Positions 2,305 through 36,830 of a stretch of 64,000 nt of DNA are shown here, piece by piece. The DNA is from Acidimicrobiia bacterium (GTDB lineage Bacteria; Actinomycetota; Acidimicrobiia; IMCC26256; PALSA-610). Position 1 is the first letter of the stretch. Each line of letters starts with the position of its first letter. The DNA lies in assembly GCA_038240075.1 (NCBI GenBank), contig JBBSEC010000003.1, forward strand, positions 5,753-69,752, written 5' to 3'. Made by a program: the position numbers and the translations under genes. The notes below the pieces were generated by a model. It saw only the letters and a list, made by a program, of their open reading frames with translations. It was not told the origin of the DNA and made no database searches.

Positions 2305-3569
2305 TGGTCGAGTCCGAGCCGCCCACGAAGCCGGCGATCAGCCGGCGTCGCTTCGTCGGTGGCCTTGGCGCCGCGGGCGCGGTGGGCGTGGGTGCCGCGC
2401 TCGTCGGCAAGTCGGTGATCTGGACCGATTCCGACGGCTCCGACGCGACGACGAGCACCGCGCCGGCGGTCGATTTCTACGGCGCGCATCAAGCGGGCAT
2501 CGCGACGCCGGCCCAGGACCGGCTCCTGTTCGGAGCGTTCGACGTCACGAGTGCGAGCCGCGCGGATCTGGTTGCGCTGCTGAAGCAGTGGACGAGCGCG
2601 TGCGCTCATTTCGCAGGCGGTCGGCAGATTGGCCGCAACGACGTCGAGGCGGCGCCCCCGGACGACACGGGAGAGGCGCTCGATCTCGCTCCCGCGCGCC
2701 TCACGATGACCTTCGGGTTCGGACCGACGATGTTCGACGACCGCTTCGGGCTCTCCGGCAAGCGGCCCGCGGCGCTGATCGACCTTCCCGCGTTCGACCA
2801 CGACAACATCGATCCCGCGATCTCGGGCGGCGACATCGGCGTGCAGGTGTGCGCCGACGATCCGACGGTCGCGTTCCACGCGCTACGCAACCTCACGCGG
2901 ATCGGCAAGGGCGTGGTCGGCCTGCGGTGGACGCAGCTCGGGTTCGGCCGCACCTCGAGCACGAGTGCGAGTCAGGAAACGCCCCGCAACCTGATGGGGT
3001 TCAAAGACGGCACCAACAACGTCGCGGGCGACAACCGTGCGCTCATGGAGTCGCAGGTGTGGGTCGGGCCCAGCGATCAACCGGCGTGGATGCGGGGTGG
3101 TTCCTACCTCGTCGCGCGCCGGATCCGGATGCGTATCGAGCAGTGGGACCGTGACTTCCTCGGCGATCAGGAGAACGTGATCGGACGAATCAAGTCGACG
3201 GGCGCGCCACTCGGCCGGCTCCACGAACGCGATCTGGTTCCTCTTGAGGCAGCACACGCCGACGGATCGCTCGTCATCCCGCCCGACGCGCACATTCGGT
3301 TGGCCGCGCCGGCGACGAACGGGGGCGCGCACCTCCTGCGCCGCGGGTACTCGTTCACCGATGGGGTCAGCCCGGTGACCGCGGGGCTCGACGCCGGTCT
3401 CTTCTTCCTGGCCTACATGCGCGATCCGCGCAAGCAGTTCGTGCCGATCCAGAACCGGCTGGCTGCGAACGACGCGCTGAACGAGTACATCGAGCACGGG
3501 TCGACCGCCATCTTCGCGGTGCCGCCCGGAGTCGAGCACGGCGGCTACATCGGTGGAACACTCCTCTGA
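2304..3569 (+). CDS. efeB: Dyp-type peroxidase EfeB with Tat signal
   Basis: SRRRFVGGLGAAGAV twin-arginine leader and Dyp-like body. The ATG overlaps the TAA of the preceding gene (TAATG), consistent with an efeUOB operon. Confidence 0.9.
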   Translation: MVESEPPTKPAISRRRFVGGLGAAGAVGVGAALVGKSVIWTDSDGSDATTSTAPAVDFYGAHQAGIATPAQDRLLFGAFDVTSASRADLVALLKQWTSACAHFAGGRQIGRNDVEAAPPDDTGEALDLAPARLTMTFGFGPTMFDDRFGLSGKRPAALIDLPAFDHDNIDPAISGGDIGVQVCADDPTVAFHALRNLTRIGKGVVGLRWTQLGFGRTSSTSASQETPRNLMGFKDGTNNVAGDNRALMESQVWVGPSDQPAWMRGGSYLVARRIRMRIEQWDRDFLGDQENVIGRIKSTGAPLGRLHERDLVPLEAAHADGSLVIPPDAHIRLAAPATNGGAHLLRRGYSFTDGVSPVTAGLDAGLFFLAYMRDPRKQFVPIQNRLAANDALNEYIEHGSTAIFAVPPGVEHGGYIGGTLL

Positions 3570-3640
3570 GCAGCCGCAGCGAGGGCGAGCAGTGCGGCAC
3601 ATGACGGTGAGGCGCATGCGGATGCGACCATGAGGCGGGC
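3570..3640 (+). repeat. family-1 intergenic module, copy A (diverged)
   Basis: GCAGCCGCAGCGAGGGCGAGCAGTGCGGCACATGACGGTGAGGCGCATGCGGATGCGACCATGAGGCGGGC aligns with the copies at 5859, 12443, 12515 and 36751. It fills the whole efeB-stop to next-ATG spacer. Confidence 0.6.
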
Positions 3641-4021
3641 ATGAAGAAGAGTGATGCGCTCGCACGCGTGCGCAAGATCTGTATGGCCTTCCCGGCGACG
3701 GAGGAGCGTCTGAGTCACGGCGCACCGACGTTCTTCGCGGGGGGCAAGAAGACCTTCGTCATGTTCCTCGACGATCACCACGGCGACGGCCGCCTCGCCA
3801 TCTGGTGCAGCGCTCCGCCCGGGATCCAGGCGACGCTCGTCGACGAGGAGCCCACGCGCTTCTTCGTGCCGGCCTATGTCGGCACCCGGGGCTGGGTCGG
3901 CGTGCGCCTCGATATCGATGTCGATTGGGACGAGGTCGCCGGCATCATCGACGACGGGTTCCGCGAAGTTGCGACGAAGCGCCTGATCGCCGAGCATGAG
4001 CAGAGCAGACGCACGAAATGA
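3641..4021 (+). CDS. MmcQ/YjbR-family protein
   Basis: 126 aa. KICMAFPATEERLSHGAPTFF...RGWVGVRLD pattern typical of the YjbR/MmcQ fold. Confidence 0.8.
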   Translation: MKKSDALARVRKICMAFPATEERLSHGAPTFFAGGKKTFVMFLDDHHGDGRLAIWCSAPPGIQATLVDEEPTRFFVPAYVGTRGWVGVRLDIDVDWDEVAGIIDDGFREVATKRLIAEHEQSRRTK

Positions 4022-4524: not shown

Positions 4525-5852
4525 GCGCCCCGCCGAGTCCGCTGCCTGCAATCGCGCCGGGGCCGCCGGCCGCGACCATCACGTTTCCGTGGGACGACGC
4601 CGGCGCGCCCGACCCGGTCGCGGCGCTCACCGCCGCGCGTGCCGAGCTCGGCGACACGTTCGTCGTCGACTCGGGTCCCGACCGCTACCTGTTCGTGTTC
4701 GGCGGTGTCGCGCTCACGAACTTCTACGCGCTCCCCGAACGGATCGCGAGCAAGGGCCTCGCCGACTACCGCATGTTGTTGCGCAAGCTGCCCGACGAGC
4801 TGTTCCTCGGCCGGCGCACCTACGCGCACGACTTGTTCGGCGTGCAGGAGGTCGAGGGATACCTCGATCACCTCGATCTCGCGGTCGACCGGCAGATCGC
4901 CGAGCTCGGCGACGCAGGAACCTTCGACGCGTTCGCGTTGGCGCGCCGCCTCGGCCACCGTCTTGCCCTCGGCTGCTGGATGGGCGACGCCGCGGCCGCG
5001 CCTCCGCAGCTCGACACGCTCATCGCCGACCTCGAGTGTCTCGATGGCGCGGAGGCGTTCGTGAACCCGGAACGCATGGCCGGCCGCGACGGAGTCAAGG
5101 CCGTCGAGCGCGCCGCGCTCGCTCGCATCGAGTCGGTGGTTGCGTCGCGTCTCGCGAGCGCGGAGAGCCGCGATCCGGACCCCGATGGCTTTTTCGGTGA
5201 GATCGCACACCGCTGGGACGACGTCGACGCTTCGGAGCGGGTTCGCGGCGTGACCGGCGACGTCGTGCTGCTGCACGTGGCGACGATGACGAATCTCTTC
5301 GCGGCGCTGGGATGGACCCTGTCCCTCGTGCTGCTCGACGAGCGCGTCCGCGCGCGGGTCGAGGCCGGAGCCGACCGTGCCTACCTCGACCGCTGCGCGC
5401 TCGAAGCGATCCGGATCGGACAGCGCTCGATCATGCTGCGGTCAGTCTTGAAGCCGTGCGACTTCGACGACGGCACCGCGAGCTTTCACCTCGATCCTGG
5501 AGTGCTCCTCGCGACCATGCTCCCGCTCACGAACACGACGGCCCTGGCCGGCCTCGCCGACTTCGATCCCGATCGCTGGGACGGTCGCCGCCTGCGCGAG
5601 GCCGACGAGCTCGACGCGAAGGAGGTCGTCACCACCTTCGGGCACGGTGGTCATCGCTGTCCGGCGCAACGGTTCTCCCTGTCGGCGATCGACCGCGCGG
5701 GCGAGCGGCTCTTCGCGACCTTCGAGCTGCGGCCGCGCTTCGATTCGGTGCGCCCGATCCCGTCACAGATCGGGGGAGTGGCGCGCGCGGCCGACCCGTG
5801 TCCTGTCGACTACGTCCGCAGGCCCGCCGGTACTCTGCGCCCAGTCATTTAG
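4521..5852 (+). CDS. cytochrome P450
   Basis: Heme-thiolate loop FGHGGHRCPAQ near the C-terminus. TTG start overlaps the upstream TGA. Confidence 0.9.
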   Translation: MSAPPSPLPAIAPGPPAATITFPWDDAGAPDPVAALTAARAELGDTFVVDSGPDRYLFVFGGVALTNFYALPERIASKGLADYRMLLRKLPDELFLGRRTYAHDLFGVQEVEGYLDHLDLAVDRQIAELGDAGTFDAFALARRLGHRLALGCWMGDAAAAPPQLDTLIADLECLDGAEAFVNPERMAGRDGVKAVERAALARIESVVASRLASAESRDPDPDGFFGEIAHRWDDVDASERVRGVTGDVVLLHVATMTNLFAALGWTLSLVLLDERVRARVEAGADRAYLDRCALEAIRIGQRSIMLRSVLKPCDFDDGTASFHLDPGVLLATMLPLTNTTALAGLADFDPDRWDGRRLREADELDAKEVVTTFGHGGHRCPAQRFSLSAIDRAGERLFATFELRPRFDSVRPIPSQIGGVARAADPCPVDYVRRPAGTLRPVI

Positions 5853-5858
5853 GGGGCC

Positions 5859-5938
5859 GGAGCAGGCGCAGCCGGCGTGACGAGCGCGACGCGAGACGGC
5901 GAAGCGCATGCGGATGCGACAATGGGAGCGGGGGTTCT
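5859..5938 (+). repeat. family-1 intergenic module, copy B
   Basis: GGAGCAGGCGCAGCCGGCGTGACGAGCGCGACGCGAGACGGCGAAGCGCATGCGGATGCGACAATG... starts 6 nt after the P450 TAG and runs to the ATG at 5939. Confidence 0.7.
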
Positions 5939-10994: not shown

Positions 10995-12443
10995 GTGCTC
11001 GAGTACCAGCAGCTGTTCATCGGTGGCGAGTGGGTCGACCCCGCCGGCAAGGCCACCATCGACGTCATCTCGCCCCACTCCGAGGAGCTCGTCGGACGCT
11101 GCCCCGAGGGCACGACTGCCGACATGGACCGCGCCGTCGCCGCGGCGCGCACCACCTTCGACGACGGCACGTGGAGCCTGGCCGCTCCGGCCGACCGCAT
11201 CGCGGTGGTCACCAAGTTCGCCGAGCTCTATGCCGCGAACATGATGGAGCTCGCCGGCGTCATCACCACCGAGATGGGCTCGCCGATCTCGTTCTCGCAG
11301 CTCGCGCAGACACCCGCACCGTGGTTGATGTTGAACTCCTTCATCGGCGTCGCGTCCGAGTACCCGTGGGAAGAGCGGCGCGCGGGCACGCTGGCTCCCG
11401 AGGTCCTCGTACGTCACGAGGGCACCGGTGTGGTCGCGGCCATCGTTCCGTGGAACGTGCCGCAGTTCGTCACGATGGCGAAGCTCGCGCCCGCGTTGCT
11501 CGCCGGCTGCTCGATCGTCATCAAGCCCGCACCCGAGACCCCGCTCGACGCGCTGTTCGTCTGCAACCTCCTCGAGGAAGCCGGCGTGCCCAAGGGTGTC
11601 GTGAGCGTGGTTCCCGCCGGCCGTGAGGTCGGTGAGCACCTCGTGCGCCACCCCGGTGTCGACAAGGTCGCGTTCACCGGCTCGACCGCGGCCGGTCGCA
11701 AGATCGCGGCGATCTGCGGTGAGCAGCTCAAGCGCGTCAGCCTCGAGCTCGGCGGCAAGTCGGCGGCCATCATCCTCGACGACGCGGATCTCGCCGCGAC
11801 GGTCGAGGGCCTGAAGTTCGCGTCGCTGATGAACAACGGTCAGGCGTGCGTCGCGCAGACCCGCATCCTCGCTTCGAACAAGCGTTACGACGAGGTCGTC
11901 GAGGCGCTCTCGGCGATGGTCGGCGGGCTCAAGGTCGGCGACCCGGCCGACGCGACCACCGAGATCGGGCCGCTCGTGGCCGAGCGTCAGCAGGAGCGGG
12001 TCGAGAAGTACATCGCGCTCGGTCAGGAAGAGGGCGCGCGCGTCGCGGTCGGCGGCAACGGCCGCCCAGACGGCACCGAAAAGGGCTGGTACGTGCGGCC
12101 CACCGTCTTCGCCGGCGTCGACAACAGCATGCGGATCGCGCGTGAGGAGATCTTCGGTCCCGTGATCGCGGTGATCCCCTACGACGACGAGAAGCAGGCG
12201 GTGCAGATCGCCAACGACAGCGAGTACGGCCTCGCCGGCTCGGTGTGGACGGCCGACATGGGCAAGGGCATGGACATCGCCCGCCGCGTGCGCGCCGGAA
12301 CCTTCGGTGTGAACCAGTACACGATGGACTTCATCGCACCGTTTGGCGGCTACAAGGCGTCGGGCATCGGCCGTGAGTTCGGTCGCGAGGGTCTCGAGGA
12401 GTACCTCGAGCTCAAGTCCATCGTCGCCCCTCCCGGCGCGTAG
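10995..12443 (+). CDS. NAD(P)-dependent aldehyde dehydrogenase
   Basis: 482 aa. FTGSTAAGRKI, ELGGKSA and NNGQACVAQTR (catalytic Cys) motifs. Confidence 0.95.
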   Translation: MLEYQQLFIGGEWVDPAGKATIDVISPHSEELVGRCPEGTTADMDRAVAAARTTFDDGTWSLAAPADRIAVVTKFAELYAANMMELAGVITTEMGSPISFSQLAQTPAPWLMLNSFIGVASEYPWEERRAGTLAPEVLVRHEGTGVVAAIVPWNVPQFVTMAKLAPALLAGCSIVIKPAPETPLDALFVCNLLEEAGVPKGVVSVVPAGREVGEHLVRHPGVDKVAFTGSTAAGRKIAAICGEQLKRVSLELGGKSAAIILDDADLAATVEGLKFASLMNNGQACVAQTRILASNKRYDEVVEALSAMVGGLKVGDPADATTEIGPLVAERQQERVEKYIALGQEEGARVAVGGNGRPDGTEKGWYVRPTVFAGVDNSMRIAREEIFGPVIAVIPYDDEKQAVQIANDSEYGLAGSVWTADMGKGMDIARRVRAGTFGVNQYTMDFIAPFGGYKASGIGREFGREGLEEYLELKSIVAPPGA

Positions 12444-12577
12444 GAGCAGGCGCAACCGCGGTGACCAGTGCAACGCACGACGGTGAAGCGCCCGCGCATG
12501 CGACCGGCCAAACAGGAGCAGGCGCAACCGCGGTGACCAGTGCAACGCACGACGGTGAAGCGCCCGCGCATGCGACC
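12443..12577 (+). repeat. family-1 intergenic module, two perfect tandem copies (C1 12443-12505, C2 12515-12577)
   Basis: An identical 63-nt unit occurs twice, 72-nt period. It spans from the last base of the ALDH TAG to the base before the P450 ATG. Confidence 0.85.
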
Positions 12578-13750
12578 ATGAATTACGACCCGTACGACTA
12601 CGCGATCGACGCGGATCCGCATCCGGTCTGGAAGCGGATGCGCGACGACGCGCCCGTCTACTGGAACGAGCAGTACCAGTTCTGGGCGTTGAGCCGCTTC
12701 GCCGACGTCTACGAGGCGTCGCGCGACATCGAGACGTTCAGCTCGGCGCGCGGCACGGTGCTCGAGTTGATCGATCACCCGATCGAGGCGTTCGCGCCGA
12801 TGATCTTCCAGGATCCGCCGTATCACACGGTGCTGCGGGCGCTGGTGAGTCGGGCGTTCACGCCGCGTCGCATCGCGTCGCTCGAGGCTCGCATTCGCGA
12901 GCTGGTCGCCGAATACCTCGACCCGTGGATCGGTGCCGGCGAGTTCGACTTCGTGCAGGAGTTCGCGGCGAAGTTGCCCGCGATGGTGATCGGCTCGTTG
13001 CTCGGTGTCCCGGAGGGCGATCAGGACACCGTTCGCCGCCAGACCGACGAGATGCTGCACATCGAGCCGGGCGAAACGATGACCGACAAACGCGAGGTCA
13101 TGGACCTCTACGGCTACTGGTTCGAGCTGATCAAGGAGCGCCGCGCCCAACCGCGCGACGACATGATCAGCGCGCTGCTGGCGTCGGAGATGATCGGCGA
13201 CGACGGTGAGCCCCGCCGCCTCGACGACATGGAGCTGCTCGCGTTCATCGGCCTGCTCTCGGGCGCCGGCAACGAGACGGTTGCGCGCCTCTTGAGCTGG
13301 GCCGCGGTGCTGCTCGCGCGTCACCCCGACCAGCGCGCGCAGCTCGTCGCCGATCCTGCGGGTCTGCTCCCGAACGCGGTCGAGGAGCTCCTGCGCTACG
13401 AGGCACCGTCGCCGATCCAGGCCCGCTGGGTGACCCGCCCCGTCGAGCTGCACGGAGTTTCGATCCCGGCCGAGTGCAAGATCGCGCTGCTCACGGGCAG
13501 CGCCGGGCGCGACGAACGCGAGTACCCCGACGCCGATCGCTTCGACGTGCGCCGAACCTTCAGCCGGCACGCGTCGTTCGGTTACGGACCGCACTTCTGT
13601 CTCGGCGCGGCGCTCGCGCGGCTCGAAGCCCGCGTCGCGCTCGAGGAGACGCTGGCCCGCTTCCCGACCTGGGACATCGACGAGTCAGGGCTGCGCTGGG
13701 TGCACACCAGCACCGTGCGCGGCTACGAAACGGTGCCCTTCAGCGGCTGA
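12578..13750 (+). CDS. cytochrome P450
   Basis: MNYDPYDYAIDADPHPVW start and FGYGPHFCLGAALARLE heme loop. The track ORF starts at 12461 only because the repeat is in frame. Confidence 0.9.
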   Translation: MNYDPYDYAIDADPHPVWKRMRDDAPVYWNEQYQFWALSRFADVYEASRDIETFSSARGTVLELIDHPIEAFAPMIFQDPPYHTVLRALVSRAFTPRRIASLEARIRELVAEYLDPWIGAGEFDFVQEFAAKLPAMVIGSLLGVPEGDQDTVRRQTDEMLHIEPGETMTDKREVMDLYGYWFELIKERRAQPRDDMISALLASEMIGDDGEPRRLDDMELLAFIGLLSGAGNETVARLLSWAAVLLARHPDQRAQLVADPAGLLPNAVEELLRYEAPSPIQARWVTRPVELHGVSIPAECKIALLTGSAGRDEREYPDADRFDVRRTFSRHASFGYGPHFCLGAALARLEARVALEETLARFPTWDIDESGLRWVHTSTVRGYETVPFSG

Positions 13751-21034: not shown

Positions 21035-22282
21035 TTACCGGTAGAAGCCGGGGCTCGTCGCGCCGTCGGGCCGACCCTCGAGCGGTACCCGCAGCTCTTC
21101 GACCGTCGGGCCGACCCGCGCCGCGATCGGCGCGAGCTTGTCGAGATCGAAGCCGTAGACCTTCGCCGCGGTGCGTGCGAGCACCTGCTGCAGGTCGGCG
21201 GCCGACCACTCGGAGAAGCCCATGCGCAGCAGCTCGCGCGAGTACGGCGTCGAGCCTTCGTGGTGCGGGTAGTCGCTGCCCCACATCATGTTCTCGAGGC
21301 CGAGCCTCAACATGGCCTTCGCCTCGATGACGCCGGGGAAGCTCACACCGACGTAGCAGCTCTGCTTGAAATACTCGCTCGGCGGCCGCGGCAGACGATT
21401 GTCGGCGTCGAACTTCAGCTCACCGATGCGACCACCCGCCATCTGCATGTGGAAGCCGTCGAGCATGCGCAAGGTGTCGACGAGCCACGAGCAGCCCTGC
21501 TCGGTCAGCACGAACTTGAGCTTGGGGAACCGCTCGAAGACGCCGCTCATCATCACCTGCCAGAACGCGCGGTGCGCGAACCACGCGGTCTCGATGAGCC
21601 ACATCGCTCCGCCCGACGGTGCGTCGCCGTAGTCGGGGTGACCGCTCCCGGAGTGGTAGTTGACCGGCATGTCGAGCTCTTCGCAGGTGCGCCAGAACGG
21701 GTCGTACTCGGCGCAGAAGTAGGGAAGGATGTCGGTGTCGTCGGGAACGCCGGGGATGAGCACGCCACCGCGCAGACCGTGCGCGTGCGCCCATTTCACC
21801 TCGGCGATCGCGGCGTCGATGTCGTTCGCGAACACCTGCGCGATACCGGCGCGGCGATCGGGTTGGTTCGCACACCAGTCGGCGAGCCAACGGTTGTGCG
21901 CGCGCAGGCCGGCCCAGCGCAGCTCGAGATCGGCCGGGCTCGGCGGACGCGCGACGAGCGCGCCGGTCGGGAAGAACGGAGGCACCGTGTTCGGGAACAC
22001 GATCTCGGCGACCTGGCCGTCGGCTTCGAGGTCGGCGATGCGCCGCTCGTCGTCCCAGTTGCGGCTGCGGCTGCTGCCCTGCAGGTCGCGGAAGGGGTTC
22101 TTGTACTCGCCCCTCCACGCCTCGTAGTCGGGGACGTACTTCTCCTCGAGGTAGCCGCGGTACTGCTCCATCGATCCGCCGGCGTGGCAGTCGGCGGAGA
22201 CGATCACGTAGCGGTCGGTGAGTGGTCCGCCGGTCGCGTCGAAATCCGGGCCGGTCTTCGGGTCCTTCGTTGCTGTCGTCAC
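21035..22282 (-). CDS. amidohydrolase-2 family protein
   Basis: 415 aa. VSADCHAG...WGSDYPHHEG metal-ligand pattern. Confidence 0.9.
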   Translation of the reverse strand: MTTATKDPKTGPDFDATGGPLTDRYVIVSADCHAGGSMEQYRGYLEEKYVPDYEAWRGEYKNPFRDLQGSSRSRNWDDERRIADLEADGQVAEIVFPNTVPPFFPTGALVARPPSPADLELRWAGLRAHNRWLADWCANQPDRRAGIAQVFANDIDAAIAEVKWAHAHGLRGGVLIPGVPDDTDILPYFCAEYDPFWRTCEELDMPVNYHSGSGHPDYGDAPSGGAMWLIETAWFAHRAFWQVMMSGVFERFPKLKFVLTEQGCSWLVDTLRMLDGFHMQMAGGRIGELKFDADNRLPRPPSEYFKQSCYVGVSFPGVIEAKAMLRLGLENMMWGSDYPHHEGSTPYSRELLRMGFSEWSAADLQQVLARTAAKVYGFDLDKLAPIAARVGPTVEELRVPLEGRPDGATSPGFYR

Positions 22283-22285
22283 AAA

Positions 22286-22303
22286 CCTGACGCTAGCGTC
22301 AGG
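22286..22303. promoter_or_regulatory. perfect 18-bp palindrome filling a 26-bp divergent intergenic region
   Basis: CCTGACGCTAGCGTCAGG lies between GTG 22282 (minus-strand gene) and ATG 22309 (plus-strand gene). Confidence 0.5.
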
Positions 22304-22308
22304 CCCTC

Positions 22309-23148
22309 ATGACCAGCGACTCCACAGCTGATGTCCTCGATATCTGGGTGAACCTCGTGACCGAGAAGTCGGCCGCGCAGTTCCTCGGACAGCCCGAGAA
22401 CGCCCATATTCCGGGCTATCTGGGCGGTGACGGCAGCGCGGGGGTCGGCGTCGACGCCCTGCTCGGCGTGATGGACGAACAGGGCGTGGCGACCGGGATC
22501 CTCACGTCGGGCGTCGACCGCGGTGGTGCCGAGGCGATGCTCGAGGTCGCCGACGCGCACCCGGGACGGTTCCTCGTGTGCGCGGTGCTGAGCGAGCGAC
22601 TGCGCCCGACGCGCGACGTCCGCCGCATCCGTGAGCTCGCCGAGCACCCGCGGTTCGCGATGCTGCGCGTCACGCCGCTCGCGACCCAGGTGCCCATCAA
22701 CGACGCGCGTCACTACCCGGCGTATCAGATCTGCGAAGAGCTCGGTATCCCCGTCGGCATCAACGTCGGGATTCCCGGGCCGCGCGTGCGATCCCGCGTG
22801 CAGCATCCCGAGCTGCTCGAAGACGTGATGATCGACTTCCCTGATCTCGTGATCATCGGCGCGCACATGGGCCACCCGTACGAAGAGCTGCTCATGAACT
22901 ACATGCGCAAGTGGCCGAACCTCTACCTGTCGTGCACGGCGTACGCGCCGCGGTACTTCGACCCCGCGCTCGTGCGCTTCATGAACACGAAGGCGTTCCG
23001 CGGCCGGGTGATCTGGGGGAGCGACGAACCGTGGTTCCCGATGCGTCGGTCGCTGTCGGAGGCGCGGGCCCTGCCGATCGACGAGGAGGCGATGGCGCTC
23101 TTCCTCGGAGGCTCGGCGCGGCGCCTGCTCGACCGCACTGCTCGCTAG
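22309..23148 (+). CDS. amidohydrolase-2 family protein
   Basis: 279 aa. IIGAHMGHPY...IWGSDEPWFP pattern. Confidence 0.9.
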   Translation: MTSDSTADVLDIWVNLVTEKSAAQFLGQPENAHIPGYLGGDGSAGVGVDALLGVMDEQGVATGILTSGVDRGGAEAMLEVADAHPGRFLVCAVLSERLRPTRDVRRIRELAEHPRFAMLRVTPLATQVPINDARHYPAYQICEELGIPVGINVGIPGPRVRSRVQHPELLEDVMIDFPDLVIIGAHMGHPYEELLMNYMRKWPNLYLSCTAYAPRYFDPALVRFMNTKAFRGRVIWGSDEPWFPMRRSLSEARALPIDEEAMALFLGGSARRLLDRTAR

Positions 23149-23185
23149 TAGGAGCGGCGGAGGCACGCCGTTGTGCTATCCCCAC

Positions 23186-23247
23186 GGTCGCACACGCATG
23201 CGCTTCACCGTCTGCTCGTCATTGAGCACGGCCGCTGCGTCTGCTCC
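23186..23247 (-). repeat. family-1 module, copy E (inverted orientation, 1-nt indel)
   Basis: The reverse complement reads GGAGCAGACGCAGCGGCCGTGCTCAATGACGAGCAGACGGTGAAGCGCATGCGTGTGCGACC. Confidence 0.55.
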
Positions 23248-29429: not shown

Positions 29430-29460
29430 CCTACGATCGCCCGACCGGGGGAGGTTGCGC

Positions 29461-35778: not shown

Positions 35779-35908
35779 CGCGGCAGCGTATGCCCGATGG
35801 AGCGGCGAGCGATGATCCCCGCAACGATCCTGGGGGAGACGAGACGAGTCGGAGCGAGCGCGACCATGAGCATGGCGCGTCCCCGAGAGCCGCACGTACG
35901 ATCCCGCG

Positions 35909-36751
35909 ATGGCCGATCGCGACTACGAGATGATCACCTTCGAGCAGCAGGACAACGGCGTCGCGTGGCTGACGCTCAGCCGCCCACAGGTGCACAACGC
36001 CTTCAACATCCAGATGCGCAACGAGCTGAAGGACTGCTGGCGTTCCTTACGCTACGACGACGACGTCCGTTGCGTCGTGCTCACGGGGGCGGGCGAGCGG
36101 GCCTTCTGCACCGGGATCGACCGCACGGAGACGATGGGCGACGGCTATCCCGCCGACGGGGCCGCAAAGAAGGAAGGCGGGACCGGCTTCGCGAAGTCGC
36201 CGTGGATGTTCGACGACCCCGGCGACGAGATCGGCCCGAAGTCGTGCGATCTCTGGAAACCCGTCATCGCGGCAGTGAACGGCATCGCGTGCGGTGGCGC
36301 GTTCTACATGCTCGGTGAGGTCGAGTTCATCATCGCCGCGGACCACGCGACGTTCTTCGACCCCCACGTCACCTACGGCATGACGCCGGTGTTCGAGCCG
36401 ATCCACGTGATGCAAAAGATGCCGTTCCACGAGATCATGCGGATCTCGCTGCTCGGCAACCACGAACGCATGTCGGCGAAGCGCGCGCACGAGATCGGGT
36501 TCGTCTCGGAGGTCGCGCCCCTCGCCGAATTGCGTGAGCGCGCGCAGTGGGCGGCCGACGCGATCGCGTCGGCTCCGGCCCTCGCGACGGCGGGTGCCGT
36601 GCGTGCGCTCTGGATGGCGCTCGAGCTCTCTCGGAAACAGGCGCTCGACATGGGCTTCTCGCTCATCCGGATCGGCAGCGATCCCGCGAGCATCTCCGAA
36701 GGCCAGGAGAAGTTCGCGGGCGGACAGCGCATCGAGCCGAGGATCCGGTAG
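35909..36751 (+). CDS. enoyl-CoA hydratase/crotonase family protein
   Basis: 280 aa. LTGAGERAFCTGID...AVNGIACGGA. Confidence 0.9.
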   Translation: MADRDYEMITFEQQDNGVAWLTLSRPQVHNAFNIQMRNELKDCWRSLRYDDDVRCVVLTGAGERAFCTGIDRTETMGDGYPADGAAKKEGGTGFAKSPWMFDDPGDEIGPKSCDLWKPVIAAVNGIACGGAFYMLGEVEFIIAADHATFFDPHVTYGMTPVFEPIHVMQKMPFHEIMRISLLGNHERMSAKRAHEIGFVSEVAPLAELRERAQWAADAIASAPALATAGAVRALWMALELSRKQALDMGFSLIRIGSDPASISEGQEKFAGGQRIEPRIR

Positions 36752-36830
36752 GAGCGATCGCAACCGGCGTGACCAGTGCGACACAGGACGGACCAGCGCA
36801 TGCGAGCGCGACCGTGAGAATGATTCCAAC
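36751..36830 (+). repeat. family-1 intergenic module, copy D
   Basis: GGAGCGATCGCAACCGGCGTGACCAGTGCGACACAGGACGGACCAGCGCATGCGAGCGCGACCGTGAGAATGATTCCAAC runs from the last base of the crotonase TAG to the ligase GTG. Confidence 0.7.

Follow-up and report, generated by a model that had tools for sequence, protein, structure and literature searches.

What fills the gap between the genes of an aldehyde dehydrogenase (ALDH) and a cytochrome P450 in an uncultured member of the Acidimicrobiia, and why does it do so twice over? In the stretch analysed here (64,000 nucleotides (nt) of contig JBBSEC010000003.1, with a G+C content of 68.7%, hereafter the window), the two genes meet at a stretch of 135 nt that holds two copies of one 63-nt unit, hereafter the element. 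We consider it probable that this stretch is a two-unit array of a lineage-specific interspersed repeat, from a family resembling both mycobacterial interspersed repetitive units (MIRUs) and miniature inverted-repeat transposable elements (MITEs), and not a riboswitch or a coding repeat. The element is, we infer, selfish or neutral DNA which is sometimes co-opted by its host.

The duplication between the ALDH and P450 genes

The junction is composed of the following features, which were located with an open reading frame (ORF) list, Pfam, a profile hidden Markov model (HMM, run with nhmmer) and a covariance model:

10995..12443, + strand: aldehyde dehydrogenase gene (ORF list; Pfam Aldedh, E 1e-156; TAG stop at 12441-12443)
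12443..12505, + strand: repeat unit 1, 63-nt core GGAGCAG...GCGACC (nhmmer E 2.5e-17; covariance model 66.7 bits)
12506..12514, + strand: linker between the units, 9 nt, GGCCAAACA (core plus linker gives the 72-nt period)
12515..12577, + strand: repeat unit 2, 100% identical to unit 1 (exact match; nhmmer and covariance model)
12578..13750, + strand: cytochrome P450 gene (Pfam p450), whose ATG at 12578-12580 is the element's 3'-terminal ATG(A)

The initial annotation had reported an exact 63-nt tandem duplication with a 9-nt gap and a 72-nt period, and this was confirmed both by self-comparison, in which 12443-12505 and 12515-12577 are the same at 63/63 nt (0 mismatches, and 0 such matches in 100 shuffles), and by Tandem Repeats Finder, which returned 12442-12577 with a period of 72, a copy number of 1.9 and 100% matches. 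Unit 1 opens with the final G of the ALDH stop codon, because the ALDH ORF stops at 12441-12443, and the last base of unit 2 (12577) has the ATG at 12578 directly next to it. The frame said to run from the GTG at 12461 through both units into the P450 is likewise present as described, and ORF 12461-13750 reads VTSATHDGEAPAHAT-GQTGAGATA-VTSATHDGEAPAHAT-MNYDPY. By its sequence, the stretch appears to be a two-unit array with the second, identical unit as a recent local duplication, that is, an allele of a variable-number tandem repeat (VNTR).

Copies in the window and in related metagenomes

The HMM, built from the window copies and run on the window, gave exactly six full-length hits, at 3565-3632(+), 5858-5924(+), 12441-12506(+), 12514-12580(+), 36749-36816(+) and 23248-23183(-), all with E ~1e-17, and no other window match was better than E 0.8. 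The covariance model, run as a second search, found the same six at 67-83 bits, followed by a wide gap to the next match. Six full units at five loci are thus present in 64 kb, plus one internally deleted derivative at 35851; apart from the ALDH-P450 junction, they are:

3567..3629, + strand: copy between the DyP peroxidase and YjbR genes (HMM, covariance model, Pfam)
5859..5921, + strand: copy after a hypothetical gene that stops at 5850-5852 and before the APH phosphotransferase gene (start 5930) (HMM, covariance model)
23186..23247, - strand: copy in a convergent gap (HMM, covariance model)
35851..35870, + strand: 20-nt internally deleted, termini-only derivative, GGAGCGA followed by GCGCGACC and then ATGAG (covariance model; tentative)
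36751..36813, + strand: rare-subtype copy (GGAGCGATCGCA...GCGAGCGCGACC) between the enoyl-CoA hydratase and ATP-dependent DNA ligase genes (HMM, covariance model)

All full copies that the initial annotation had placed at 3570, 5859, 23186 (minus strand) and 36751 were recovered (nhmmer E ~1e-17, covariance model 72-83 bits). Of the three shortened forms that it had proposed, the one at 35851 stood (covariance model hit 35845-35876, 20.9 bits, E 0.002, ~40 nt upstream of the enoyl-CoA hydratase start), while those at 29447 and 32092 were at noise level (E>20), the sequence at 29447 being an ordinary Shine-Dalgarno (SD) motif plus an ATG gene start. The 35851 sequence, GGAGCGA followed by GCGCGACCATGAG, equals both termini of the 36751 rare subtype joined with the interior deleted, and the 36751 copy lies 900 nt downstream; the enoyl-CoA hydratase gene is thus bracketed by two related elements, the derivative upstream and the full rare-subtype copy just downstream.

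Outside the window, a two-block pattern scan of JGI metagenomes matched at least 120 loci (designated by L numbers below), and true copies were present in 20 of the 120 loci listed, with at least 27 units. The covariance model on the listed loci counted at least about 29 units at >=53 bits, with chance pattern matches at <=37 bits. At least about 30 further family copies are therefore found in metagenomic contigs of related uncultured Acidimicrobiia, and the family is spread to many gene junctions in this clade; as a dispersed module, with copies at five window loci and at least 20 further metagenome loci, the unit is genuine. A 19-base core pattern run against 185,579 species-representative genomes (GTDB) gave 55 single chance matches and no family member, none of the matches being full length and none in Mycobacterium; because this pattern matches only ~15% of known copies, the scan speaks for rarity and leaves absence unproven. 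In eight Bradyrhizobium genomes (L008, L011, L013-L015, L031, L036, L042) there is one exact 26-nt core-pattern match each, probably in one conserved gene segment; none extends past the pattern region, so that they are unrelated to the repeat family.

The unit had been described as no named repeat, riboswitch or leader, and the searches bear this out. Rfam had no family at the gathering score, with only noise (<=15 bits) in a permissive scan, and the literature search gave no paper with the unit sequence and none on intergenic repeats in Acidimicrobiia. What would be expected of a riboswitch or another cis-regulatory RNA, either a match to a curated family or a structured core placed before related genes, was not found. 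A plasmid collection returned distant ALDH matches only. Two other classes were considered and rejected: the "spacers" are only 9 nt long for a CRISPR array (Rfam CRISPR-DR28 at 13.9 bits, threshold 35), and for integron attC sites no RYYYAAC/GTTRRRY core sites were seen at the termini upon inspection of the alignment, with gene order being the same in element-less relatives.

Tandem arrays are typical of the family, as two or more units occur at 10 of ~25 independent loci, window included. Units recur every 72 nt in the window, L066, L098, L138, L081 and L111, every 75 nt in L149, and every 71 nt in L065, L148 and L116, with linkers of 8-12 nt in all of these arrays outside the window. Identity between adjacent units is 100% in four arrays and 94% in two, compared with a between-locus mean of 74%. 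The duplication could nevertheless be an assembly artefact, or a one-off local event without wider meaning, since the contigs of L066, L081, L111, L116, L138 and L148 break inside their arrays, which shows that assemblers struggle there and that copy number may be wrong; for the same reason, true copy numbers may exceed the assembled ones. However, ten independent contigs, which come from different samples and assemblers, have arrays with periods of 71-75 nt, a typical read pair is longer than the 135-nt array, and the family is clearly dispersed. We therefore regard an artefact or an isolated event as a very improbable origin of the window duplication.

Anatomy of the unit

An alignment of 34 distinct copies gave the consensus gGAGCAG.CGCA.Ccg.cGtgAccaGtGc....C..gacgG.GaAGCGCAtGCGgaTGCGACC(a/g)tga, where both ends are conserved at 90-93% and the 30-nt interior at 72%. 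RNAalifold and pair counts were applied on 27 of the copies, and in the resulting fold the 5' block GCAGNCGC(A) pairs with the 3' block (T)GCGN'ATGC (termini in full: GGAGCAGNCGCA...TGCGN'ATGCGACC), which amounts to a short imperfect terminal inverted repeat. In the ALDH-P450 array, this helix is located at:

12446..12453 (GCAGGCGC) with 12494-12501 (GCGCATGC), + strand: terminal helix of unit 1 (RNAalifold, pair counts)
12518-12525 with 12566-12573, + strand: terminal helix of unit 2 (equivalent of unit 1)

The pair N:N', with N left free in the search pattern, is C-G in 8 copies, A-U in 5, G-C in 4, U-A in 1 and G.G in 9, with no other mismatch type, while a second helix pair is A-U in 25 and G-C in 2. 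The covariation of the terminal helix (0.100) exceeded that of shuffles (0.068 +/- 0.009, 0/500), and the score collapsed once the partner was slid. The 36751 copy bears compensatory G-C and U-A pairs in this helix. Judged from the alignment, the structure seems to be a short closing stem, in other terms an imperfect terminal inverted repeat, with a free interior between its two arms, and may act in RNA or in DNA. Helices within the interior (columns 32-35 with 52-55; columns 39-40 with 47-48) were also tried, with little or no covariation support.

The repeat could instead be a protein-binding site at the DNA level, its palindromic CGCATGCG core being used as an operator, in recombination or by a nucleoid-associated protein. 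In favour of this, the blocks with the highest conservation are short and GC-rich, and the 8-mer CGCATGCG is a perfect palindrome found in about two thirds of copies; about a third, however, read CGCACGCG, where the palindrome is broken without compensation. Furthermore, the copies are located at operon junctions and not at promoters, no promoter-like sites were found, and a simple operator would leave the tandem amplification and the orientation bias (see below) unexplained, so a binding site of this kind is in our opinion quite improbable. The element was also considered as a promoter or an intrinsic terminator, for which no sites were found, the element being without a T-run.

Translation of the unit and the P450 start

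If the unit were a coding repeat, the P450 would begin at GTG 12461 or 12533 and bear one 24-residue repeat, or two, at its N-terminus; alternatively, a leader peptide would be encoded by the unit. The open ORF 12461-13750, the 72-nt period that preserves the frame, and a GGAG 14 nt upstream of each GTG are all in keeping with this. However, in the orthologous units of L056, L063 and L184 the frame opened by the GTG is interrupted by a TAA before the ATG is reached, frameshifting 1- or 2-nt indels between these two codons are present in 8/34 copies, and only 6/34 copies have an intact in-frame reading from one to the other. The 120 listed P450 homologues are 289-424 amino acids (aa) long and most of them 391-405 aa, whereas 429 aa is expected from the 12461 start. 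The VTSATHDGEAPAHAT peptide is in none of these 120 homologues, of which the closest begin at the element ATG or at a native start, and N-termini of the form M(K/R/N)T(E/D)IVYDPY fall at the element's ATG. Because of the in-frame TAA in orthologues and the frameshift indels, a translated VTSATHDGEAPAHAT peptide and start 12461 are disfavoured, and translation from this GTG, as claimed in the initial annotation, could not be upheld; we find a coding repeat hardly credible, and these comparisons favour 12578 as the P450 start. An exact-protein look-up of the window P450 with three alternative starts found nothing on record. The element is also a trap for gene callers, which placed starts at 12461-type GTGs and gave P0009 an element-derived extension.

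History of the ALDH-P450 junction and of other junctions

Syntenic contigs of relatives, with P450 nucleotide identities to the window of 84-87%, present the junction in several states. L060 lacks the element; its spacer measures 18 nt, and GTG TAC GGC TCG (VYGST...) is the native start. L187 (1299-1320) has only the 12-nt 5' block GGAGCAGGCGCA upstream of its native start VSYGSE, and this block is perhaps a remnant or conversion tract, or else a clue to the origin of the element's 5' end. In L061 and L186, one unit stands directly past the native start codons, between TCG and GAG, where the ORF from the old start now stops at the element TGA, within GTGA (overlapping the GTG), and the new start is at the element's 3' (A/G)TG, followed by ..T(D/E)IVYDPY. 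In L056, L063 and L184 there is also one unit, with the native start region gone, the ALDH TAG fused to GGAGCAG, a 62-nt spacer, and the P450 read from the element ATG. The window has the same TAG fusion as these three, with two identical units. The ATG after GCGACC is common to L056, L061, L063 and L184.

Since relatives have none, a 12-nt fragment or one unit at the orthologous junction and the window has two, the insertion is old and the duplication recent. The aligned junctions show that the element was inserted in or beside the first P450 codons, and that its 3' ATG(A) became the P450 start codon. Such a series is of value as a natural record of gene-start remodelling, from an empty site, via a unit inserted behind the native start, to the stage at which that start is lost and the element ATG is used, and finally to duplication. 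The initial annotation had called the window array the founding copy of the family; for this there is no evidence, as the copy is old and common to relatives at ~86% P450 nucleotide identity, and is not shown as the source of others.

The closest listed P450 homologues (84-94% identity) all come from metagenomes, and the very closest (94%) is on a contig with a 37-nt ALDH-P450 spacer. About 9 of the 22 closest homologues start M/V-(K/R/N)-T-(E/D)-I/L..., which is an element-derived start, and the others keep ..SYGS.. native N-termini. The P450 of the window itself starts MNYDPYDY, without four codons (TEIV) that are present in the closest homologues (MNTEIVYDPYDY, MKTEIVYDPYDY); because TEIV is missing, a further small deletion beside the element is suggested.

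Presence/absence polymorphism is also seen at other junctions. At the APH-SDR junction, L063 has a unit, and its close relative L056 is empty (TAACC-ATG directly), the two having nucleotide identities of 94% for P450 and 98.6% for ALDH; the junction is also empty in the window, L060 and L061. The site of the 5859 copy is in turn empty in relatives, with a junction of 3 nt in L060 and 24 nt in L061. The SDR gene downstream of APH appears frameshifted at different places in L056 (7583-7800) and L063 (5341-5560) and is called ~200 nt late in each; these frameshifts may mark pseudogenes or assembly errors.

Gene context and a possible role in translation

With few exceptions, the element borders on a stop or a start codon, the upstream stop being -38 to +1 nt from the first G and the downstream start, at most loci, 0 to +24 nt from the element ATG. 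A stop codon overlaps the element at 12441, as the initial annotation had pointed out, and also at 36749 and 3567: at 36749-36751 the enoyl-CoA hydratase gene ends in a TAG whose last base is the first G of the copy, and at 3567-3569 the DyP TGA is the first 3 nt of the copy. At L081 and L162 the upstream gene stops at the element's internal TGA. The element ATG is the start codon of the P450, and also of the L063 SDR and L128 genes. Clear cases of a stop/start overlap of -4 are L061, L186, L098 and window 3630-3644, where the element ATG of the 3567 copy opens MRRA and a stop, whose TGA overlaps the YjbR ATG (as ATGA) at 3641. In L098, an upstream ORF runs in frame across both 72-nt units and stops at the ATGA of the next gene.

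With respect to orientation, copies between unidirectional genes are in sense at 8 fully determined loci, and at 5 more with one neighbour known, and antisense at 3 (L088, L174 and L065, all Pfam-confirmed), so that the bias towards sense is real but moderate. Convergent gaps hold copies at 2 loci, the minus-strand copy of the window included, and divergent gaps at 4. The flanking genes are functionally unrelated and include those of DyP peroxidase, YjbR, APH, ALDH, P450, enoyl-CoA hydratase, DNA ligase, SDR, a LeuA-like protein, a methyltransferase and an M48 peptidase, among others.

To hypothesize, the element may be tolerated between co-transcribed genes because it carries translation signals, namely a 5' GGAG, a frame-closing (G/A)TGA and a terminal (A/G)TGA overlap. 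With units of a length that is a multiple of three, ribosomes coming from upstream could terminate and then begin anew on the downstream gene, the upstream stop would be placed beside the downstream start by the closing helix, and copy number could modulate downstream expression, as proposed for MIRUs. Because the motifs are not universal and antisense copies exist, such a coupling role is at best facultative. A bolder version, which we find doubtful although worth stating, would have the family as a mobile "translational coupling cassette" that inserts at SD and start-codon regions and carries the frame-closing TGA, restart codons and a 3' ATG, with the helix aligning stop with start and the number of units tuning translation. 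If this were true, ribosomes would pass between cistrons across 63 to >135 nt, and the operons of an uncultured actinobacterial clade would possess a heritable, rapidly mutable expression dial.

An alternative is that selection maintains the element as a cis-acting RNA module, for example one that stabilises mRNA, is processed by an RNase or regulates the translation of operon-internal genes, and that its spread reflects this function. This agrees with the dominance of sense orientation in unidirectional pairs (8-13 vs 3), with a covarying terminal helix that adjoins stop and start codons, and with the ALDH-P450 copy being kept across species at ~86% nucleotide identity with its termini conserved. 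On the other hand, downstream genes are unrelated in function, Rfam has no match, presence and absence differ between close relatives, antisense copies occur, the number of units differs at one site, the interior lacks conservation and the thermodynamic z-scores are weak, and we judge the RNA module unlikely. The initial annotation had likewise spoken of a functional module, and this was not shown; the presence/absence polymorphism, the three antisense insertions and the copy-number variation fit a selfish or neutral repeat with occasional co-option.

Several observations weigh against our preferred reading of a MIRU/MITE-like repeat with an occasional part in translation, and they are considered together here. 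At the three antisense loci, translation signals cannot act. The internal-site NTGA/(G/A)TGA, which closes frames from upstream and overlaps the GTG, is present in 23/34 copies, and the 3' (A/G)TGA, a -4 stop/start overlap, in 16/34, so neither is universal. The coupling mechanism itself is something that we infer from sequence. The covariation comes mainly from one free column pair, and subfamily descent could inflate the score; folding of single units is mostly not beyond shuffled sequences (z from +0.2 to -3.4, mostly +0.2 to -1.8), and the minimum free energy of the two-unit region (z +0.43) is no better than shuffled. The two-unit copy number in the window is as assembled and should be read as such. 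As regards mobility, a target-site duplication was sought (TCAC in L088, GAT in L174, GGAG in several), and none was consistent across copies. GGAG/GAG at both ends of many copies is inseparable from the element sequence or the host SD, and filled/empty site pairs are too diverged to fix insertion boundaries. On the contigs available, no autonomous partner element, parent insertion sequence or transposase was identified.

Relation to known repeats

The closest described systems are the MIRUs, which, as summarised from Supply et al. 1997, are 40-100 bp long, occupy ~41 loci and lie in intergenic regions within operons (PMC3184786; PMC2734929). They are transcribed polycistronically, have internal ORFs and ends overlapping flanking genes, and are bounded by imperfect terminal inverted repeats, with filled and empty sites known (PMC3184786; PMC2734929). 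Insertion at start codons with -4 coupling was described (PMC12548453), MIRU copy number correlates with downstream expression (PMC2734929), and the MIRU-containing senX3-regX3 intergenic region has promoter activity (PMC4213456).

Our family shares with MIRUs the 40-100-bp units scattered in intergenic spacers, the imperfect terminal inverted repeats and the internal ORFs. In both, relatives differ in the number of units in a tandem array, and orthologous spacers are either filled or empty, the empty ones with a length close to zero. A place between co-directional genes, ends that overlap flanking stops and starts, and insertion at a start codon or beside it with a -4 (NTGA) overlap are also common to both, in our family at part of the loci. 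It differs in its host, an uncultured member of Acidimicrobiia and not Mycobacterium, with no sequence relationship shown, so that the likeness is one of described properties. The density is also much higher (5 loci in 64 kb here, ~41 loci in 4.4 Mb there), and further differences are the three antisense insertions and the element ATG that is a conserved gene start across species. Because the host belongs to another class, no match to the 19-base core pattern was found in Mycobacterium representatives and no homology was shown, the family is not a member of the mycobacterial MIRUs.

With MITEs (Correia/NEMIS, RUP, Nezha; PMC3184786), the element has in common that it is short, non-coding and dispersed, with conserved complementary termini and a variable interior, presence/absence polymorphism at orthologous sites, and, presumably, co-transcription with neighbours. 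Terminal inverted repeats, which define MITEs, are present, though short (8-9 nt) and imperfect. Unlike in MITEs, no clear target-site duplication or parent insertion sequence was found, and head-to-tail amplification at a fixed 72-nt period is atypical of them.

Repetitive extragenic palindromes (REPs) form near-perfect, compact hairpins of 21-65 nt, which as a rule stand in inverted clusters and have a link to REP-associated tyrosine transposases (RAYTs). REPs and bacterial interspersed mosaic elements (BIMEs) resemble the present family as GC-rich intergenic repeats that can fold as an mRNA stem-loop, often lie between genes of an operon and in some genomes are present in very high numbers. 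In contrast, our unit has a short closing helix around a 40-nt variable interior, is mostly no stabler than shuffled sequence, and its copies are in direct tandem and never inverted. The family is therefore best filed as a new, undescribed family of a known kind of element, a MIRU-like minisatellite in Acidimicrobiia, an uncultured class that has received little study, which means that intercistronic repeats of the MIRU kind are not a mycobacterial peculiarity. Assemblies break in the arrays, which could also be of use as VNTR markers for strain tracking in metagenomes.

Neighbourhood of the minus-strand copy

The copy at 23186-23247(-) is downstream of a 24-codon ORF and of an alpha/beta hydrolase gene, which is on the minus strand; opposite it is the 3' end of the Amidohydro_2 gene on the plus strand (22309-23148). 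The ORF 22279-23166(-), initially a candidate neighbour of the copy at 23247, was rejected as spurious, with its codon-position GC reversed and one weak homologue, the real gene being Amidohydro_2 on the plus strand. The 24-codon ORF (MSRPGFFQRFRDSAAHDGGLARPP followed by a stop) is located at 23326-23252(-), has a strong SD (AAGGGAGG) and stops 6 nt before the repeat copy; possibly it is a small gene, or else a 5' end that was cut off from its gene.

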